Of a stretch of DNA of 64,000 nt, positions 7,034 to 56,160 are shown piece by piece. The notes beneath the pieces were generated by a model, which saw only the letters and a list, made by a program, of their open reading frames with translations, was not told where the DNA came from and searched no databases. The stretch is taken from NCBI GenBank assembly GCA_024637145.1, contig JAGXFQ010000020.1:17352-81351 (forward strand), given 5' to 3'. The stretch comes from Desulfobulbaceae bacterium (GTDB taxonomy: Bacteria > Desulfobacterota > Desulfobulbia > Desulfobulbales > SURF-16). How positions within the stretch are numbered: position 1 is the stretch's first letter; every line of letters begins with the position of its first letter. Position numbers and translations under genes: made by a program.

Positions 7034-8200
7034 ATGCCTGTCCTGCTGAACAATAAATACAGTGGCCCCTGCCAGGTCTGCCCTGCCCTCCTCATCCAGA
7101 AAGGCGAAGCACTTCTTTGCCTGGCCGGCCTGAAGGAGCACGAGCTCTCCCTGCTTCTTGTTGACGATCCGGCCATGCAGGAGCTCAACCGGCAGTGGCG
7201 CCACAAGGATAAGGCCACCAATGTCCTCTCCTTTCCCCAGGGCAGTGATGATTATTTTGAGCAGCACCCCATGCTGGGCGACATCGTCATTTCCATTACC
7301 ACTGCCGCTCATGAGGCCCGGGAGCAAGGGATATCCCTGCACCGGCAGCTGACCACCCTGCTGGTTCATGGTTTTGTCCACCTCCTGGGTTATGACCATG
7401 AACGTTCGGACCACGATGCCGAGGAGATGTTTGGCCTCGAACATCACTATTTACAAGCACTCGCAACAAGGAGAAAGAAGATGGTCAAACTCGCCATTAA
7501 TGTCGATCACGTGGCCACTCTGCGTCAGGCCCGCGGCATCAAAGAACCAGACCCGGTGACGGCCGCGGCCATTGCCGAGCTGGCCGGCGCCGTAGGCATC
7601 GTTGTTCATCTCCGGGAAGACCGGCGTCATATACAGGACCGCGACGTGGAGATTCTGCGCCAGACCGTGCAGACCAAGCTCAACCTGGAAATGGCAGCAG
7701 CCGAAGAGATTATCAAGATTGCCCTGGAGCTCAAACCGGACATGGTTACCCTGGTCCCGGAAAAACGGGCGGAGCTGACCACCGAGGGCGGCCTGGACGT
7801 GGTTGGCCAAAAGAGCAACCTCAAGAAGGTCATTGCCAGGCTAACCAAGAAAAAGATCCCGGTCAGCCTCTTTATTGATCCTGATTCCGCCCAGATTCAG
7901 GCCGCCAAAGAGGTGGGCGCCACCTTTGTGGAGATCCACACCGGCCGCTATGCCGATGCCACCAGCGACAGGGAGGAGGATCAGGAATTTGACCTCATTG
8001 CCGCGGCAGCAGAAGAGGCCTATGAGGCGGGCCTGCGGGTGAATGCCGGCCACGGCCTCAACTATGTGAATGCCGGCCGGGTGGCGGCCCTGCCCACCAT
8101 TGAGGAGCTTTCCATCGGTCATGCCATCATGGCCCGGGCGATCTTCGTGGGCCTTGATCAGGCAGTGCGCGAGATGATGGAGGTCTGCCGCTTCGCCTGA
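7034..8200 (+). CDS. Single ORF fusing endoribonuclease YbeY (N-terminal 149 codons) to pyridoxine 5'-phosphate synthase PdxJ (C-terminal 240 codons)
   Basis: The YbeY zinc motif [11 protein letters not shown] is in residues 1-149. A full-length PdxJ begins at [19 protein letters not shown] (ATG 7481, in frame) and includes HLREDRRHI and NAGHGLNY. There is no stop codon between the two parts. An SD AAGGAG at 7468-7473 would also allow independent pdxJ initiation at 7481. Confidence 0.85.
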
Positions 8201-23945: not shown

Positions 23946-25721
23946 CTACTCCACGGCCATCTCCCTGAAGCCCCAGAAGGGGTAGTCGAGATGGTAGCGG
24001 GCCACCAGGCCGGGAGAATTCTCCCGGCTGGCCACCAGCCACAGGGAATTGACCCGGTTGGCGGTACGGCTGTCCACCGGGTCCCAGTCGGGCAGAAAGA
24101 CCAGGGCATTATCAGCAGTGTACTCAATATCGCCGGAGCCCTTGAACATGCCCATATGGGGCACACCGTCATAGCGCCCACCCTCCTGCCGGTTGAGCTC
24201 GGAGATGACCAGAAAGGCGACGTTATACTCGTCCCGGATCGACTCCATCTCCCGCAGCCAGGCGTCAATGCCGGTGCGGCGCTCCGAGAAATCCTTAAAG
24301 GGCAGCTTGTGCAGCGAGTCGATGACGATCACGGCGTCCTGGCGGTGGGTCTCGTGCCGCAGAAAATCAACATGGCGGCGCATGATCTCCGGGTTGAGCT
24401 GGCGGTCGTTGACCACCCGGAACCAGGACAGCATGGTGCGCAGCTCGTCTTGGGCCTGGCTGAAACGATGCTGGTCGTCGCCCTCCAGCTGGTCGTTAAA
24501 GCGGGCCACTGGCAGCCGGCTCAGACGGGCCATGGTCCGTTGGTAGATCTTCTGGCGGCCGTTCTCAAAATCATAATAGATCACCGGCACCTGGCTGGCC
24601 GCCATCTGGCTGGCCAGCTGGATGGCGAGACAGCTCTTGCCCGCCTTGGGCGCCCCACCGATGATATTGATGCCGTGGATACCGCCCAGCACCTCATCGA
24701 GACAGGGCATGCCGCTCTTTAAGGCCTGGTAGCCAGCACTCTGGCGCCGCTCCAGATTTTCCACAAAAAGGGTATATTCACGGCCGGGGGTGTTAAAGGG
24801 CGAAAAGGCCCGGGCCCCCCTGATCATTTTCTGCAGTTCCGCCCTGAAATTGTCGCCCTCCTGCTGGGCCATCCGGGCCAGACTGAAATCGCGCGGGGCC
24901 TGACCGGGCCATTTGAGGAGACGGGCCTTGAAGCCAAGCCGGCTGGCGAAAAGACGCGCCGACGCCTCTGATTCCGGCGTATGATTCACCACCATAAAAA
25001 GGGTCTCAACAGCGGCAAACCTTTGGCTGTCCAGGGCGGCCAGATCAACGGCCCGGGGTACGGCCACGCCGGGATAGCCCTGTTCCCGCAGGCAGAGGAG
25101 ATTCTCTTCGCCCTCCACCACAAAGAGGGCGCCCCCCTGGCAACGGCCGATATCCGCCAGGTTGAAGAGACGGAACTCCCCGGCTGCCAGCTCCTCTTCT
25201 CCGTACCAGAACTCTTCGCCGCTGCCCTGGGGGGCCAGACAATGGGCGGCATAGCAGCAGCCGTTTTCCTGGAAATAGGGATAGACAATATAGCGGCCGT
25301 TAAAACCGATCCGCAGCTCCTGGAGGACCGCAGGACCTACCCCGATCCGGCTGAAGCCTTCCCGCACCGCGCTGGTCATGCTGTTTTGGTACTTGAGGAT
25401 ATCCTGGTTGATATTTTTCAGGGGCCATTCAACATTGTGGACGTAAGGCTGCTGATCTGGATCATGACCGGGCACGGTGTCCGCCTCGAGCAAGCGCAGT
25501 CGGGCAAAATGGGGGGCAAAGCCACCGGCCACGCAGCGGCTCAGACAGCGGAAATAGCCGGCAAAAAACCCATCCTCATCTAAAAAGACCACCAGGGTCC
25601 CCGGCTCTTTGCGGCCCCGGCTCGCGCAAAAGGGACAGGGGGCCTTGAGCGTGGTGCCCTCAATAACCGCGCCAGGCAGATTGTCCTGATAAAAACGTGC
25701 TAATTTTTCATGCAATGCCAT
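23946..25721 (-). CDS. Zn-ribbon / TOPRIM-like / DnaB-C (RecA-fold) ATPase protein (primase-helicase-like architecture)
   Basis: N-terminal CPFC...(24 aa)...CLSRC zinc-ribbon candidate. Central TOPRIM-like segment (LFVVEGEENLLCLREQGYPGVAVP). C-terminal DnaB_C/AAA_25-like ATPase with Walker A GGAPKAGKS and Walker B AVIVIDSLH. An SD AAGGAG lies upstream of the ATG. Confidence 0.8.
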   Translation of the reverse strand: MALHEKLARFYQDNLPGAVIEGTTLKAPCPFCASRGRKEPGTLVVFLDEDGFFAGYFRCLSRCVAGGFAPHFARLRLLEADTVPGHDPDQQPYVHNVEWPLKNINQDILKYQNSMTSAVREGFSRIGVGPAVLQELRIGFNGRYIVYPYFQENGCCYAAHCLAPQGSGEEFWYGEEELAAGEFRLFNLADIGRCQGGALFVVEGEENLLCLREQGYPGVAVPRAVDLAALDSQRFAAVETLFMVVNHTPESEASARLFASRLGFKARLLKWPGQAPRDFSLARMAQQEGDNFRAELQKMIRGARAFSPFNTPGREYTLFVENLERRQSAGYQALKSGMPCLDEVLGGIHGINIIGGAPKAGKSCLAIQLASQMAASQVPVIYYDFENGRQKIYQRTMARLSRLPVARFNDQLEGDDQHRFSQAQDELRTMLSWFRVVNDRQLNPEIMRRHVDFLRHETHRQDAVIVIDSLHKLPFKDFSERRTGIDAWLREMESIRDEYNVAFLVISELNRQEGGRYDGVPHMGMFKGSGDIEYTADNALVFLPDWDPVDSRTANRVNSLWLVASRENSPGLVARYHLDYPFWGFREMAVE

Positions 25722-25830: not shown

Positions 25831-26817
25831 TCAGAGGTGATGTTCATAGCCCTGGTACGATATCAGCCGTTTTTTACCATCTTCCCTCAAAAAGAGACCC
25901 TGGCCGCCGGTCATCCGCCCCAGGCAGCTTAATTGCAGATGCAACTCTTCCCTGACCTGCCGGGCCAGGGCCTCACCGCGGCCCGGGGCCACGGTATAGA
26001 GCAGCTCATAATCTTCGCCGCCGCTGAGCGCCCACTGGCGGGCATCATGGGAAAGAGACTCCCCGGCCCTTTGCGTGGCAGCAGAAAGAGGCAGGTTCCG
26101 GCCATCAACCTCCGCAGCCAGGCCGCTTGCCGTACAGATATGAGCCAGATCCGTGGCCAGGCCGTCGGAAAGATCCATCATGGCATGGACATGACCGGAG
26201 GCGGCCAGGAAACGGCCCAGGGCCAGGCGGGGCTGGGGGTTGAGATGGGCCTGGAGCAGCCCGGCAAACTCTGCAGGGACAGCTGCCCCCTTCTGGCAGA
26301 GGGCCAGACCGGCCGCCGCCTCCCCCAGGAAACCGCTGACCCACACCTCATCCCCCTGGCGGGCGGCGGCGCGATAACAGACCTCAGCCCCGGCCATCTC
26401 GCCCAGGAGGGTGATGGTGAAGGTCGGGCAGGGTGCAGTCACCGTATCACCGCCAATCAGGGCCACCCCGTGTTCCTGGAGCATCTCGACAAAGCCGTTC
26501 ATAAATTCCTGCAGGCCCTGCTCGGAAAGATCAGAGCTCAAGGCCGCTGACAGCAGGGCAAAGGTGGGCCTGCCGCCCATGGCGGCGATATCGCTGAGAT
26601 TGACGGCCGCGGCCTTGCGGCCCAGGAGATGGAGGGGGTGCCATTTCAGGTCAAAATGGACCCCTGAGACCAGGGTATCGGTGGTCACCAGCAGAACCTG
26701 CTCCTCATTTTTGCGGAGCACGGCGCAATCATCGCCAATGCCCATAACCAGGCCGGGAACCGGAGCCGCGGCCAGGGATGCCACTCCTTTGATAAATGCC
26801 AGCTCTGAACTGCTCAT
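25831..26817 (-). CDS. thiL: Thiamine-monophosphate kinase
   Basis: AIR-synthase-fold ThiL pattern (GIGDDCAVL, TTDTLVSGVHF, NLSDIAAMGG, GGDT, DLSDGL). ATG 26817 overlaps the upstream stop (ATGA). Confidence 0.9.
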   Translation of the reverse strand: MSSSELAFIKGVASLAAAPVPGLVMGIGDDCAVLRKNEEQVLLVTTDTLVSGVHFDLKWHPLHLLGRKAAAVNLSDIAAMGGRPTFALLSAALSSDLSEQGLQEFMNGFVEMLQEHGVALIGGDTVTAPCPTFTITLLGEMAGAEVCYRAAARQGDEVWVSGFLGEAAAGLALCQKGAAVPAEFAGLLQAHLNPQPRLALGRFLAASGHVHAMMDLSDGLATDLAHICTASGLAAEVDGRNLPLSAATQRAGESLSHDARQWALSGGEDYELLYTVAPGRGEALARQVREELHLQLSCLGRMTGGQGLFLREDGKKRLISYQGYEHHL

Positions 26818-28289
26818 TGCTCCCCCTTTTGGGCCAGCCCGCAAGCGCCCGCTCTTTCCTCAGGATAAAAGGTGGCGAGATGGTCGCTGAGCCTGGCCTT
26901 GATGGCTGCAGGAGAAGCGCAGGCCAACAGAGCCGCGGCCAGCGCCTCGGCCTGCCGGCAGTGGCTCTTGCGCACCATCTGCTTGACGGCCGGCATGGCC
27001 AGGGGAGACATACTGAGGCCATCCAGCCCCAGACCAAGGAGCAGCGGCAGCAGGTGGGGGTCAGCGGCCATCTCTCCGCAGAGATGCACCTCAATGCCGG
27101 CCTCATGACCCGCTTGCACCACCTGGGCAATCATGCGGAGCACCATGGGATGCAGGGGGGTGTAAAGAGAGGCCACCTGGTGGTTATCGCGGTCCACGGC
27201 CAGGAGATGCTGAATAAGATCATTGCTAGCAATGCTGAAGAAATCAACCTCCCGGGCCAGGCGATCGGTAAGGGCCACCACCCCGGGCACCGCCACCAGC
27301 ATGCCGATCTCCACATCATCACCTGCGGGCAGCCCCTGGCTCCGCAGCTCCTTACGCACCCGGGTCACCATCTCCTTGGCGGCAAGGAGCTCCTCCAGGG
27401 AGGTGATCATGGGAAAGATGAGGCGCAGGGTGCCAAAGCCGGCCGCCCGCAACAGGGCGCGGAGCTGGGTCTTAAAGAGCTGCGGTTCACGGAGAGAGAG
27501 ACGGATGGCCTTAAGACCCAGGGCAGGATTTTTTTCCAGGTAGTTTTGGTGCCCCTCCACCTCTTTGCCGCCGCCCAGATCAAGGGTGCGCACCGTCACC
27601 GGCATGGGGCTCATGCTGGTCAGGAGATGTTCATAAATAGCCAGCAGCAGCTCCTCAGAGGGGGGGCCTTCCGGGGTGAGATAATAAAATTCAGAACGGA
27701 AAAGCCCGATTCCGGCAGCGCCATGCTCCAGGGCCGGCTCAATCTCCTCAAGGGTCTGGATATTGGCCTCAATGGCCATCTTTCTGCCCTCTCTGGTCTC
27801 GGCCGGCAGATGGGCGAACAGCTTGCTCTGGCAGCTTTTCTGCAGCATCTGTTGCTGCAGCTTCTCATAGGCTGCAAGCTCCTTGCTGTCAGGATTGACC
27901 ACCACCCGGCCCCGACTACCGTCCACCACCAGGAAATCGCCACTGACCACCTGTTGGCAGATGCCCAGACAGCCCATCACCGCCGGGAACCCCACGCTCC
28001 TGCCCATAATGGCGCTGTGACCGGTGACCCCGCCCAGCTCCATGACAAAACCGCGCACCAGCTGCCGGTCCATGGCCAGAACATCCTGGGGCGGGAAATC
28101 ATGCCCCACCAGAATAACCGGTTCATCCTGAGGAAGAGTGCCGCCGTCCATCTCTGAGAGGGCCCCCGACCTGCGGGCCCCTCTGTCGTGCAGCTTGGCC
28201 AGAACAAGGGCCCGGCCCATGGCAAGGCCCGGGGAGGCGGCAAGGCCGTGCAGCTGTCGGGATGTTGGCGGGATCTGGTTTTTTTTCAT
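26814..28289 (-). CDS. PEP-utilising Enzyme-I homologue (PEP-protein phosphotransferase-like) lacking the HPr-binding helical subdomain
   Basis: The EI N-terminus (GLAASPGLAMGRALVL), the phospho-His swivel (GGVTGHSAIMGRSVGFPAVMG) and the PEP-utilizers_C barrel (LFRSEFYY, RTLDLGGGKE, FPMITSLEE, FFSIASNDLIQ, LCGEMAAD) are all present. Only about 22 residues link the first two elements, where E. coli EI has about 130. Confidence 0.85.
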   Translation of the reverse strand: MKKNQIPPTSRQLHGLAASPGLAMGRALVLAKLHDRGARRSGALSEMDGGTLPQDEPVILVGHDFPPQDVLAMDRQLVRGFVMELGGVTGHSAIMGRSVGFPAVMGCLGICQQVVSGDFLVVDGSRGRVVVNPDSKELAAYEKLQQQMLQKSCQSKLFAHLPAETREGRKMAIEANIQTLEEIEPALEHGAAGIGLFRSEFYYLTPEGPPSEELLLAIYEHLLTSMSPMPVTVRTLDLGGGKEVEGHQNYLEKNPALGLKAIRLSLREPQLFKTQLRALLRAAGFGTLRLIFPMITSLEELLAAKEMVTRVRKELRSQGLPAGDDVEIGMLVAVPGVVALTDRLAREVDFFSIASNDLIQHLLAVDRDNHQVASLYTPLHPMVLRMIAQVVQAGHEAGIEVHLCGEMAADPHLLPLLLGLGLDGLSMSPLAMPAVKQMVRKSHCRQAEALAAALLACASPAAIKARLSDHLATFYPEERAGACGLAQKGEQ

Positions 28290-28394
28290 ATTTTTTTAAA
28301 GTCCGCTGCCAGAGCAAGGGGCCGCGCGCCGCTCCTTTTACAAATCAGAGCGGCCATTGCCCAAAAAGCAGCGGGCCTGCCCTGAGGCAGAGCC

Positions 28395-28760
28395 TCATTT
28401 AACCAGCCGCAGAGAAGACTTCTCCCCCGTCTTTCTGCTCTTAGAGGGGGGCGGCACAAGGGCATCTGTATCAAAATCAACCGCTGCCACAAAACGTTTT
28501 TCGCCGCCCATGGTGAAGATCTCCTGCCCGGTAAACTGGGAGGTCCGCAGGGTCCAGGTCACCTTTTGCGGCGGCACACTGAGGATCTGCAGCGAGACAT
28601 GCCACCACTCGTCACGTTTTCCCTGGTCACGTTCGAAACCGGTGACCAGGGCGTAGACCAGGGAGTCTGGTTGTTTTGCTACCACCAGCACCAGATCACC
28701 GATGTCCGTGGTGGCCTTGAAACGGACTAATGTCTTTAATTCCTGGACAATGGCTTCCAT
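28395..28760 (-). CDS. Hypothetical protein (121 aa)
   Basis: MEAIVQELKTLVRFK... with an SD GGAGA upstream of ATG 28760. Codon usage looks coding, and the gene is co-directional with and 105 nt upstream of the EI-like gene. I recognise no family. Confidence 0.55.
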   Translation of the reverse strand: MEAIVQELKTLVRFKATTDIGDLVLVVAKQPDSLVYALVTGFERDQGKRDEWWHVSLQILSVPPQKVTWTLRTSQFTGQEIFTMGGEKRFVAAVDFDTDALVPPPSKSRKTGEKSSLRLVK

Positions 28761-29124
28761 ATTTTTCTCCGCAAAACTTGAGGGGGGACCATAAAAAAAA
28801 TCTCTCCGCCCGGCCCAAGAGCTGGTGCTGAGAAAGATACGCGCACCTTGCCAGAGTTTCACTGAAAACTCCAATTGTTTCCCTTTTGCCCTCCGCCTTT
28901 TTGGCTCCGGACGAGCGAAGGATGCGGCCGGTTACCCTCGGCTTTTCCTATCATTTTTTTTTGTTTTATTGTATTAACTTCATGCGGTGGGTAAAGATTA
29001 ATACTTTTACATGGTCCCTTCCTAAGAGTCTCCTGTGTTTTGGTGAGGGAAAAATCCCTTGCCGCCAAACCACGCCACCTCTCTTATTTCACAATCAATT
29101 TTTTATTTCCCGCCAATTTTTTTT

Positions 29125-52844: not shown

Positions 52845-53216
52845 CTACTGCAGGGCAGCCAGCGAGCGCAGCAAAACCGCCAGCGCCCCTGCCAGCTCAT
52901 GGAGCAGCCCCTTTATCTCCTTGCCACCTTTTCCCTGGGCAATGGCCTTCTCCACGGCCAGACAGGCCTGAGGCACGGCAGTGGCACCAATACTGGCAGA
53001 GGCCCCTTTCAAGGTATGGGCCGCCATACGGAGGCCCTGTAGATCGCCCTTGCTGAGCAATGCCGCCATTTCCGCGGCCTTCGCCCTGTTCTTTATGGCG
53101 AATTTAAGGAGAATAGGTCGCAACATCTCTGCGGAAATGCCTGTCCGCTCCATGGTTTCGGCAAGATCGATTCCTGGTAATTGTGGTGGCAGCGCCTGGT
53201 CTTCAGATATCTTCAT
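52845..53216 (-). CDS. Stand-alone histidine phosphotransfer (Hpt) domain protein
   Basis: Hpt signature around the phospho-His (LRMAAHTLKGASASIGA) in a roughly 120-aa helical protein. ATG 53216 is 1 nt after the helicase stop, with an SD GGAGG at 53226-53230. Confidence 0.8.
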   Translation of the reverse strand: MKISEDQALPPQLPGIDLAETMERTGISAEMLRPILLKFAIKNRAKAAEMAALLSKGDLQGLRMAAHTLKGASASIGATAVPQACLAVEKAIAQGKGGKEIKGLLHELAGALAVLLRSLAALQ

Positions 53217-53217
53217 C

Positions 53218-56160
53218 TTAACCAACCTCCGGCCCCCTGCCGGGAAGGGCCAGGGTCAACGGGCAGCGCACGGTGTGGCCCGCCTTGTTTTGAAAAAGAA
53301 GATAGTTGTTGTTAAGGGCAAAGAGGAAGAGATCACGGGTGATCTCCACATCCTGGCGGCAATAGGTGATGATCTTGTCGATCCTCCCCTCCTTATACCA
53401 TTTGAGGGCCTGGAGACCGTCAGCGCTTTTTTGATGGCCCAGGGTCATGGTGGCCAAACGGTCCAGACTGAGGCGATAGCCCAGACGGCCCTTGACCTCT
53501 TCCAGGAGATCGATGGTGGGCAGGAGATGGAGCCTGGCATTGCCATAGGCTGACAAGACCATATTATCAAAGCGTTTATTGTTGAATCCCACCACCAGGT
53601 CCCGGCCACAAAGATAGTCGAGAAGCTCCACCATTTCCCCCTCCCGGAAGATCAGGAAATCATCAAGCTCGCCGTCATAGACCACGGCCACCGATACCCC
53701 CATGCGCTCAGCCCGATGCCAGCCCCCCACCTCGGCAGCGGAACGCTGGGTCTCCACATCAAACACCGCCCACTTGCGGGGCAGAAGAGGAGGCACCGCC
53801 GGGGACTCCTGGGTGGCGGACATTGCCCGGCTCTCCTTCTTCTGCACCTCCAGGCGCGGCTGGTCACCGGCCAGCAGGTCTTCCAGGACAAGACGGGCCG
53901 CCTCCTTGTCAATGGGCCGGTTGCCGGAGCCGCATTTGGGCGAGTGGACACAGGAGGGGCAGCCCGTTTCGCAGGGACAGGAGTCGATGGCTGTATGGGC
54001 GGCCATAAGCAGCTCGTCAAGGCGGCCAAACGCCTCCCGACAGAGACCGATGCCGCCGGGGCAGCCGTCATAGATGAAGATGGCGGATCCCTGCAGCTGG
54101 GGGTGGAAGGGATAAGAGATGCCGCCGATATCATTGCGATCACAGAGCACCATAAGGGGAAAGACGCCGATCACGGCATGCTCCACGGCATGGATGCCCC
54201 CCATGAAATGGACCTTCTGCGCCTGCAGGCGGGCCTCAAGGGCACTGGGGATCTCAAACCAGAGGCCATGGGTCTCAAAGACCTGGGGCGGCAGATCCAG
54301 GCTCTGGGTACTGAAGGTCTTCTGACCGCGGATGAGCTTGCGCTGAAAACCGGTGACCTGATCCGTGACCTTGAGCCGGCCGAAGCAGGCCTTGATATTG
54401 CGCACCTGTATCTCAGAAAAAACCTCCAGGATCTCGGTCTCTTTGGTGGCCAGGGCCCGGGTGAAATAATGGGCATCCTTGCGCCGCACCAGGACCTGGC
54501 TGCCTTCCAGATCAAGCTCCACCACCTCCCAGGTCTGGCCGTGATGGAGATAGAGGGCGCCGGGATGGCATTCCTTGCAGCAGCGGCCCGCATCAATATC
54601 GCCCAGCCGCTGGTTATCATCCATCTTCCTGATCACCAGGGGCTGGCCGCTGCCCCGTAGTTCCACCTGGCGGTGGGGATATTTCCGGACCGTGAAATAT
54701 CGTTTGCCGTTTTTCGCCTGCAGGAGCTGGCCCGTGGCGCAGAGTGACGCCACGGCCTTGTGCACCGCCGGGCTGGCCAGCAGGGGTTCATCCCTGTGCA
54801 GGGGCGACTCGGCGGCGGCGCAGAGCAGGTGGCGGGCGGAGATCTCCTCATTGTCCGGATTAAGAACTGCCGATTCCACCTTTCTCTGAAAAAACTGCTC
54901 GGGGTTCTTGAGGAAATAGTGGTCCAGGGCGTCTTCCTGGCCCACCATGATAATCAGGCTTTCCTGCTGCCGTCTGCCCACCCGGCCGCCGCGCTGCCAG
55001 GTGGACATGATGGAGCCTGGATAGCCCACCATGATGCAAATATCCAGGGAGCCGATATCAATGCCCAGCTCCAGGGCCGAGGTGGTCACCACCCCGTAGA
55101 GCTCGCCGCTGGCCAGCTGCTGCTCGATCTGCCGGCGCTCCTCCGGCAGAAAACCGGCCCGATAGGCGGTGAGCTTCTCCTGCAGCTCCCCCAGCCTCTG
55201 GCCGGTCCACAGGGCAACCAGCTCGGTGATCTTGCGCGACTGGGTATAGACGATGGTGCGCAGGCCCCGCTTTAAGGCCGCCTCCAGCAGCTGACTGGCA
55301 GCATGAGCTGCCCCGTCCCAGGGATCAAAAAAAAGGAAATGGCTCGGGGCCCGGGGGGCGCCGCTTGTGGTCACCACCTGCGGGGGGCGACCGATGAGGT
55401 GCTCACCCAGCTCGGCCGGATTGCCGATGGTGGCCGAAAAGAGCAGAAACTGCGGATTGCTGCCGTAGAGGGCGCAGATGCGGCGCAGGCGCCGGAGCAC
55501 CCAGGCCATGTGGGAGCCGAAGACGCCGCGATAGGAGTGGACCTCGTCAATGACCACATGGGTCAGATTGCTGAAAAATTCGGCCCACTTCTCATGGTAG
55601 CCCAGGAAGGAGAGATGGAGCATCTCCGGGTTGGAGATGATGATGTTGGCCGGATTTTCGCGCAGCTTCTTGCGCCGATAGCTTGAGGTATCGCCATCGC
55701 ACACCGCAGCCGTAAAACTTCTGCCAACCGGCAGCTGGGGGGCCATGGCTTCCAGGCGCCGGAGCTGGTCCTGGGCCAGGGCCTTTAAGGGGAAGAGATA
55801 AAGGGCCCGGCTAGCCGGCTCTGCCATGATCTTTTCCAGCACCGGCATGGTATAGATCAGGCTCTTACCGCTGGCCGTGGGGGTGGCCACCAGGAGATCC
55901 TCGCCCTGGCGGATAAGGTCCATGGCCCGGGCCTGATGGCTGTAGAGCCGCTCCGCCCCTTCCCGGGCCATGATCCGGCGCAGCTCAGCAGGCAGGGGCC
56001 GGGCCAGTTCGGCATAGCACGCCTCCTGGCCGGCCAGAAACTCGTGGTGGACCACCTGGGGCCCGAAACGGCTGGAGCCCTTGAGGGCGGCCAGATATTC
56101 GACGACATTTTGGGGGCTGACTGAAGGCATCTCCACCTGAGCATCTGAGAGGAAGGACAA
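53218..56160 (-). CDS. MrfA/YprA-like DExH helicase with DUF1998 zinc cluster, fused to a C-terminal DEDD-type (RNase-H-fold, MrfB/YprB-like) exonuclease
   Basis: Helicase motifs: LYSHQ, ATPTASGKSLIY, VVIDEVHSYRG, FSAT, WQRGGRVGRR. DUF1998 Cys cluster: CPCETGCPSCVHSPKCG. The last roughly 185 aa carry the exonuclease motifs FDVET, VGFNNKRFDN and YCRQDVEITRD. The start is TTG 56160 or ATG 56130. Confidence 0.9.
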   Translation of the reverse strand: MSFLSDAQVEMPSVSPQNVVEYLAALKGSSRFGPQVVHHEFLAGQEACYAELARPLPAELRRIMAREGAERLYSHQARAMDLIRQGEDLLVATPTASGKSLIYTMPVLEKIMAEPASRALYLFPLKALAQDQLRRLEAMAPQLPVGRSFTAAVCDGDTSSYRRKKLRENPANIIISNPEMLHLSFLGYHEKWAEFFSNLTHVVIDEVHSYRGVFGSHMAWVLRRLRRICALYGSNPQFLLFSATIGNPAELGEHLIGRPPQVVTTSGAPRAPSHFLFFDPWDGAAHAASQLLEAALKRGLRTIVYTQSRKITELVALWTGQRLGELQEKLTAYRAGFLPEERRQIEQQLASGELYGVVTTSALELGIDIGSLDICIMVGYPGSIMSTWQRGGRVGRRQQESLIIMVGQEDALDHYFLKNPEQFFQRKVESAVLNPDNEEISARHLLCAAAESPLHRDEPLLASPAVHKAVASLCATGQLLQAKNGKRYFTVRKYPHRQVELRGSGQPLVIRKMDDNQRLGDIDAGRCCKECHPGALYLHHGQTWEVVELDLEGSQVLVRRKDAHYFTRALATKETEILEVFSEIQVRNIKACFGRLKVTDQVTGFQRKLIRGQKTFSTQSLDLPPQVFETHGLWFEIPSALEARLQAQKVHFMGGIHAVEHAVIGVFPLMVLCDRNDIGGISYPFHPQLQGSAIFIYDGCPGGIGLCREAFGRLDELLMAAHTAIDSCPCETGCPSCVHSPKCGSGNRPIDKEAARLVLEDLLAGDQPRLEVQKKESRAMSATQESPAVPPLLPRKWAVFDVETQRSAAEVGGWHRAERMGVSVAVVYDGELDDFLIFREGEMVELLDYLCGRDLVVGFNNKRFDNMVLSAYGNARLHLLPTIDLLEEVKGRLGYRLSLDRLATMTLGHQKSADGLQALKWYKEGRIDKIITYCRQDVEITRDLFLFALNNNYLLFQNKAGHTVRCPLTLALPGRGPEVG

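Follow-up and report, generated by a model that had tools for sequence, protein, structure and literature searches.

A short Enzyme I lacking the HPr-docking subdomain in a Desulfobulbaceae bacterium, with a probable role outside the phosphotransferase relay

In this study, we analyzed an Enzyme I (EI) gene in a 64,000-nt stretch of DNA from a Desulfobulbaceae bacterium (assembly GCA_024637145.1, contig JAGXFQ010000020.1, positions 17,352-81,351; the whole stretch is called the window). The gene encodes a short EI of 491 amino acids (aa), which is missing the alpha-helical subdomain that binds HPr, and its locus carries no HPr gene. Our reading, which we hold to be probable, is that this protein is a retained phosphoenolpyruvate (PEP)/pyruvate-binding EI core with an HPr-independent role, outside the relay of the phosphotransferase system (PTS). 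Few multidomain enzymes have been studied as thoroughly as EI, which has also been proposed as an antibiotic target, and HPr docking is regarded as the sole purpose of its alpha-subdomain. The removal of HPr and of exactly this subdomain, which appears to have happened twice in nature with the rest of the protein under selection, amounts to a natural test of EI modularity; the short EI supports a modular view of the EI N-terminal domain (EIN) and points to a role for the EI core that is independent of HPr. We found no description of such a role in the full-text literature, nor of any natural EI without the alpha-subdomain, including the second group of short EIs presented below.

Several lines of evidence agree on what has been kept and what has gone. 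A Pfam scan of the 491-aa open reading frame (ORF) matches the swivelling His domain (PF00391, aa 55-127, 69 bits) and the PEP-binding barrel (PF02896, aa 155-443, 325.5 bits) and gives no match to PF05524, the HPr-binding subdomain (E. coli residues ~33-142). Model positions 152-560 of TIGR01417 pair with residues 55-463, and phmmer against EI chains in the PDB pairs aa 54-461 with EI 153-560 and, weakly, aa 10-31 with EI 2-23; the strands in this N-terminal piece (aa 11-29) are modeled with a predicted local distance difference test score (pLDDT) above 90. The motifs GLAASPGLAMGRALVL, GGVTGHSAI (with His91, the equivalent of EI His189; codon CAC, 28017-28019) and LCGEMA (with Cys404, the equivalent of EI Cys502; codon at 27078-27080) are all in place. 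These results bear out a first-pass annotation of the same DNA, which had listed the N-terminal strand, the phospho-His swivel and the TIM barrel with its catalytic-Cys context as retained and had placed only about 22 residues where EI has residues 21-152. In the formal alignment, E. coli PtsI residues 24-152 are replaced by ~22 residues (aa 32-53), and the deletion is in-frame and comprises ~105 aa relative to relatives of 596 aa. In EIN, the alpha-subdomain is enclosed by linker 1 (residues 19-32) and linker 2 (residues 143-156) (PMC8295985); set against the position of the gap, these boundaries mean that the missing part is almost exactly the alpha-subdomain and that both linkers have been fused. 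Structure prediction, which like the formal alignment had been proposed as a check, confirms that the HPr-docking subdomain is deleted: in an AlphaFold2 model (118 sequences; pLDDT 88, predicted template modeling score 0.89), only aa 33-51 are disordered (pLDDT <50), and the model superimposes on the closed, phosphorylated E. coli EI (2HWG) at 1.6 Å over 420 columns. Apart from this loop, the model predicts a His domain, a linker helix and a PEP-binding barrel that are intact and foldable, in a protein that is 36% identical to E. coli EI and, over the alignment, 61-66% identical to its nearest full-length relatives.

The window protein has one close twin (P0001; 491 aa, 92% identical), from the Desulfurivibrionaceae metagenome-assembled genome (MAG) Uz-K9-06, which was the only further source recovered among GTDB representatives; the next-best relatives are all 596-613 aa long and all carry PF05524. 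In neighbor-joining trees, every one of 300 bootstraps places this pair with eight full-length EIs. Gene order points to the same ancestry. At locus L002, the order is extracytoplasmic function (ECF) sigma factor, u119 (related to u121, the 121-aa ORF that opens the operon in the window), ptsH (89 aa, with the GLHARPA motif), full-length ptsI, thiL, a DnaB_C-like gene, UvrB and DUF374, and the order u120-ptsH-ptsI-thiL is also found in L013, in L017 and, at greater distance, in L015, the complete genome of Thiovibrio sp. JS02. In the window and at locus L001, the order is u121, a spacer, the short EI and thiL, without ptsH, and the flanks common to the two hold an ECF sigma factor, DegP, the DnaB_C-like gene, UvrB and DUF374. 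Given that ptsH stands at the position of the spacer in these four relatives and that the flanks here are identical, the HPr gene and the HPr-docking subdomain must have been lost in the window lineage, which makes the case stronger than the earlier description of an EI orphaned from its PTS partners. On the evidence of sequence and synteny, the short EI derives directly from a canonical ptsI that belonged to an ancestral operon of the order u120-ptsH-ptsI-thiL: ptsH was deleted in the Desulfurivibrionaceae lineage, and an in-frame loss of ~105 codons removed the alpha-subdomain almost exactly and left the linkers fused into a floppy loop. An assembly or gene-calling artefact has a negligible chance of explaining the short form. 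Two other short matches (P0247 and P0312) did prove to be N-terminally truncated gene calls, but the 491-aa in-frame gene is present in three assemblies (the window, the identical Logan contig SRR13628065 and MAG Uz-K9-06, at ~94.5% nucleotide identity), and all three show conservation of the N-terminal strands that precede the junction.

The window lineage is not the only one to have trimmed its EI. In a profile search over 1.84 billion cluster representatives, genuine short forms among the best 150 matches fall into only two clusters. (Five further candidates, P0012, P0055 and P0090 in addition to the two just named, were rejected as N-terminally truncated gene calls or contig-end fragments.) The second cluster, here called the sister clade, consists of proteins of 462-485 aa without PF05524 from Desulfobulbaceae-type MAGs (P0027, P0029, P0039, P0053, P0063, P0066 and P0241), with only 44-48% identity to the window protein. 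At the three sister-clade loci that were read (those of P0029, P0066 and P0241), the order is u120, short EI, thiL, with no HPr, so that locus, absence of ptsH and absence of the alpha-subdomain are common to both groups. The sister clade is monophyletic in 100% of replicates and is never joined by the window pair, and a 16-taxon clade of the window pair, the eight full-length EIs and the sister group has 91% bootstrap support. The breakpoints differ as well, with 23 residues separating the His domain from the N-terminal strands in the window protein compared to 11-14 in the sister clade; the 23 residues include a part that shows homology to linker 1 in the full-length relatives. Since both tree positions and breakpoints are distinct, two independent deletions are the parsimonious reading of these sequences.

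The members of the sister clade have lost His189 (replaced by Pro, Ser or Gly) and Lys340 but keep Glu431, which, together with Arg296, Arg332, Asn454, Arg465 and Cys502, is invariant. Their ratio of nonsynonymous to synonymous rates (dN/dS) is 0.17-0.20, which is what full-length pairs give when equally diverged; their core is conserved about as much as ThiL in the same genomes, and the remnant has been kept across ~40% amino acid divergence. The sister clade is clearly functional, and from its sequences it looks like a conserved EI-derived pseudoenzyme. Three positions (E276, D339 and T453) are changed both in the window lineage and in all six sister-clade members (hypergeometric p = 0.016), and these parallel changes suggest a common shift in constraint after the loss of HPr and the alpha-subdomain. 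Unlike the His-less sister clade, the window protein keeps His91 and Lys242, and the window gene may represent an earlier stage of a path that the sister clade took independently before losing the phospho-His.

Selection still acts on the window gene. Compared with L001, it shows 42 nonsynonymous and 39 synonymous differences (dS 0.11), giving a dN/dS of 0.34, well below neutrality (binomial p = 6e-6), and not one indel in 1473 nt. This ratio is nevertheless above that of nine neighboring genes (0.07-0.32; odds ratio 1.86, p = 0.012), and the full-length pair L002/L017 gives 0.14 overall. The difference from that pair lies in the barrel (0.29 versus 0.07), whereas the His domain is hardly affected (0.18 versus 0.16), and the C-terminal tail reaches ~0.9. 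A relative-rate test counts 46 versus 18 unique changes, that is, a window lineage evolving ~2.5-fold faster. The substitution pattern thus indicates purifying selection with relaxed constraint. It also bears on the idea that the ORF is a functionless vestige, kept only because it lies between the promoter and the essential thiL, through polarity or translational coupling. The EI stop and the thiL start do share an ATGA, as the first-pass annotation had noted, and a Shine-Dalgarno-like GGGGGAG motif lies inside the EI tail; the dN/dS above that of the neighbors, the accelerated evolution, the changed catalytic residues and the lost ptsH are all in line with decay, and at just 81 substitutions the ORF could have stayed free of stops by chance (p 0.13). 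A vestige, however, predicts a dN/dS of ~1, a value that only the tail approaches, and not the overall ratio or the 0.18-0.29 of the folded domains. Moreover, a u120-thiL junction in Desulfocapsa shows that outright removal of the gene is viable, and the sister clade keeps an analogous remnant under strong constraint, with invariant substrate-site residues. We thus consider a vestige quite unlikely and favor a remnant that is kept by purifying selection, with relaxed constraint and a remodeled active site that has lost the Mg2+ ligand Glu431.

This remodeling is evident in the barrel. The short EI retains the equivalents of Arg296, Arg332, Lys340, Asn454, Asp455, Arg465 and Cys502, seven of the eight residues of the barrel active-site set. 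The equivalent of Glu431 is Ala333 (GCG, 27291-27293), in the twin as well as in the window protein, and that of Asp339 is Gly241 (27567-27569). Among 82 columns that are near-invariant (conserved to 97% or more across 111 full-length EIs), nine are changed in the window protein and its twin compared to 0-1 in the eight nearest full-length EIs; these changes, which include E431A, D339G, G452A and Y459H, cluster around the active-site segment 429-459. Glu431 and Asp455 are the carboxylate ligands of Mg2+ in EI (PMC7836100), and with one of them lost, PEP-dependent autophosphorylation is likely to be impaired. The expectation of the first-pass annotation that the protein should still autophosphorylate from PEP has therefore become doubtful, in view of Glu431 to Ala and the eight further near-invariant changes.

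The same annotation had envisaged an active PEP-dependent autokinase, whose His91 would hand on its phosphoryl group to a new acceptor other than HPr, either a protein or a small molecule. Such an enzyme would account for the retention of His91 with its GGxTxH signature, the unchanged dN/dS of the His domain, the seven retained barrel residues and a model in the closed, autophosphorylation-competent arrangement. It is harder to reconcile with the loss of one of two Mg2+ ligands, with the other changes around segment 429-459, with an independently derived sister clade that dropped the His and is still conserved, and with an operon that offers no candidate acceptor, as the His of u121 is not conserved and the partner of u121 is thiL. 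We regard an active autokinase as unlikely. A different acceptor or a regulatory role is possible, and a role without phosphotransfer is favored because the sister clade has lost the phospho-His and yet is strongly conserved. The short EI would thus no longer be a PTS enzyme, and its phosphotransfer capacity may be weakened or in the course of being abandoned; what remains is most likely an HPr-independent, PEP/pyruvate-binding EI core, probably dimeric, in a regulatory, sensing or other non-relay role.

A comparison with known systems helps to place this protein. With PtsI (E. coli EI, PDB 2HWG and 2KX9, and the syntenic 596-613-aa proteins P0002-P0009), it has in common the His domain, the linker helix, the barrel with the catalytic Cys and the locus; it differs in lacking PF05524 and an adjacent ptsH, in Glu431 to Ala with eight more near-invariant changes, and in its faster, relaxed evolution. 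The domain-level model TIGR01417 scores it at 409 bits (cutoff, 341.7) and the His-less clade at 393-398 bits, which is why both short groups bear the database name "phosphoenolpyruvate--protein phosphotransferase," whereas the full-length PtsI equivalog NF008382 gives the short EI 371 bits (cutoff, 824). PTS presence can hence be overcalled in Desulfobulbales genomes, where remnants are labeled PtsI and pass domain-level hidden Markov models (HMMs). Lacking the HPr-binding subdomain and a complete catalytic set, the short EI is best described, from its sequence, as a derived EI variant and not as a working PtsI. EI-Ntr (PtsP) has the EI-type His domain and barrel together with an extra GAF domain at the N terminus and an NPr-binding subdomain, both of which are missing from the short EI (no GAF domain; NF008283, 303 bits versus a cutoff of 583). 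The minimal module of swivelling His domain and PEP/pyruvate barrel is exactly that of PEP synthase and pyruvate phosphate dikinase. Those enzymes carry an N-terminal ATP-grasp domain as a second docking site for the His domain, which the short EI lacks, and their models score it far below cutoff (119-172 bits versus 598-843), with fold matches weaker than to EI. Engineered constructs of the EI C-terminal domain (PDB 2XZ7, 2BG5 and 6VU0) match the barrel at 1.3 Å; they lack all of EIN, whereas in the natural protein the His subdomain and the linker are still there. That a PTS regulatory protein can survive in nature after losing a whole domain is known from the HPr kinase of alpha-proteobacteria and Coxiella, which is reduced to its C-terminal part (PMC2405797), although both the protein and the domain are different. 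DhaM was considered as a possible earlier case of an EI His domain that lacks the alpha-subdomain and was rejected, as the DhaM model covers the whole of EIN (residues 26-236 of the full-length P0004).

Could the short EI still serve the PTS, with HPr or NPr encoded elsewhere and phosphorylated through a noncanonical contact with the His domain? The TIGR01417 score above the cutoff would be compatible with this, as would the fact that the absence of HPr refers to the readable DNA. In the 64-kb window, no PTS component was found by Pfam, precomputed annotation or tblastn and HMM searches for HPr, the latter two run with a positive control; the Pfam scan took in 50 ORFs outside ~19-37 kb, and ~17-38 kb was covered through the syntenic L001 stretch, for which Pfam annotation had been precomputed. 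This agrees with the earlier statement that the window has no gene for HPr, EIIA or EIIB/C. A protein-index search for HPr returned 13 close relatives, none of them from short-EI genomes, although it is too insensitive to prove absence. The docking surface for HPr in structures of EIN-HPr complexes is specifically the deleted alpha-subdomain. From this established docking role, we infer that the protein cannot serve HPr. Further, the HPr-binding site lies within EIN (PMC8295985), the syntenic ptsH is absent from every short-EI locus examined (window, L001, L004, L005 and L016), and the presence and absence of EI and HPr are strongly correlated across bacteria (PMC2405797). Continued service in the PTS is thus very improbable.

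More speculatively, the EI core may have a conserved function for which HPr and ultimately even the phospho-His are dispensable. It could sense PEP, pyruvate or 2-oxoglutarate or carry out a new reaction independent of the His, and this function may be connected with the u120-thiL operon. This more specific proposal, which we put forward only tentatively, would explain why the gene was trimmed and not deleted in two lineages. Several points weigh against our interpretation. The readable DNA consists of the 64 kb and of loci of about ±10 kb, and HPr or NPr may lie elsewhere in the genome; the trees are neighbor-joining trees built with a simple distance on the shared region; and the dN/dS of the window gene comes from just 81 substitutions in one genome pair, at a short divergence that inflates this ratio. 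The effect of E431A is deduced from structure and conservation, and with His91 and its signature kept and the His domain showing the lowest dN/dS (0.18), phosphotransfer could still be in use. Whatever the role, the series from full-length EI to EI minus alpha to EI minus alpha and His provides ready-made constructs for the study of EI domain closure and of pseudoenzyme evolution. The features of the locus and the sister-clade genes are listed in Table 1.

Table 1. Short EI gene of the window with its parts and neighbors (window positions), and the sister-clade genes read (locus:positions)
Feature	Position	Strand	Description
Short EI, 491 aa	26814..28289	-	N-terminal strands, phospho-His domain, linker helix and PEP-binding TIM barrel, without alpha-helical HPr-binding subdomain
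Short EI aa 10-31	28197..28262	-	N-terminal beta-strands of the alpha/beta (His) subdomain; EI residues 2-23
Short EI aa 32-53	28131..28196	-	Disordered loop of ~22 residues; fused remains of EIN linkers 1 and 2; in-frame deletion junction
Short EI aa 54-145	27855..28130	-	Swivelling His domain (PF00391)
Short EI aa 155-443	26961..27827	-	PEP-binding barrel (PF02896)
thiL	25831..26817	-	Thiamine-phosphate kinase (TIGR01379, 316 bits)
Spacer, 105 nt	28290..28394	-	Where relatives carry ptsH
u121, 121 aa	28395..28760	-	First operon gene; conserved, Desulfobulbales-specific
TTTACC-16-TACAAT	28968..28995	-	Sigma-70-like promoter match upstream of u121; consensus match only, candidate operon promoter
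P0029 short EI gene	L004:2548-3936		Sister clade
P0066 short EI gene	L005:1376-2782		Sister clade
P0241 short EI gene	L016:6957-8366		Sister clade

The ORF upstream of the short EI, u121, had been reported as a protein of unrecognized family 105 nt away; the gap is confirmed, and u121 has no match in Pfam or NCBIfam. We retrieved 665 homologues, none with a Pfam family, and all the named sources are Desulfobulbales-type or unclassified deltaproteobacterial genomes. The structural model has an N-terminal helix, a small beta-barrel and a disordered tail with a conserved LRxVK at its end; the fold has no PDB match below E = 0.1. The identity to L002 is higher for u121 (81%) than for EI (69%). Genes of the u121 family always precede thiL at close range, with either nothing or ptsH-ptsI in between, and in Desulfocapsa sulfexigens the homologue (L010:8001-8384) overlaps thiL with no pts genes in between, so that thiL is to be seen as the partner of u121. 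The first-pass annotation had suggested checking whether the 121-aa protein co-occurs with the EI variant; the link is to thiL instead, and Desulfocapsa has u120 and thiL together without pts genes between them. As a substitute phosphocarrier or EI partner, u121 was rejected: its sole His is Asn in L002, no fold match was found, and its partner in Desulfocapsa is thiL. It is a thiL-associated Desulfobulbales orphan and not a part of the PTS; conversely, the ptsH-ptsI pair sits inside the u120-thiL operon in part of the Desulfobulbales.

The spacer between u121 and the short EI contains no ORF, and a consensus scan of its coding strand gave neither a terminator nor a promoter. Its predicted RNA fold (-49.2 kcal/mol) is more stable than that of shuffled sequence (z -2.6), and its length differs by indels between the window (105 nt) and L001 (95 nt). 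A relic of ptsH in the spacer was considered and rejected, as neither local nor chained alignments with the L002 ptsH region did better than shuffles (p = 0.08-0.36), and a seeming match to the His15 motif is not significant. At L017, an intact ptsH (L017:429-692) between u122 and ptsI is uncalled in the source index, and the ptsI call is overextended upstream (613 aa instead of 596); this case shows that "no HPr called" in a precomputed annotation is not proof of absence.

Directly downstream of thiL, the window has an uncharacterized, helicase-like DnaB_C/AAA_25 protein of 591 aa with an N-terminal Cys-rich motif (23946-25721, minus strand), and the gene is found at this place in L001, L002, L004, L014 and L016 as well. 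Farther away, a 388-aa ORF (7034-8200, plus strand) combines a YbeY endoribonuclease (aa 34-142) with PdxJ (aa 152-384) and looks like a ybeY-pdxJ fusion. A 126-aa Hpt-domain protein (52845-53225, minus strand), belongs to two-component phosphotransfer and has no relation to HPr; its ORF overlaps the start of the one for a 980-aa DEAD/MrfA-type helicase with a C-terminal RNase H-like domain (53218-56160, minus strand).

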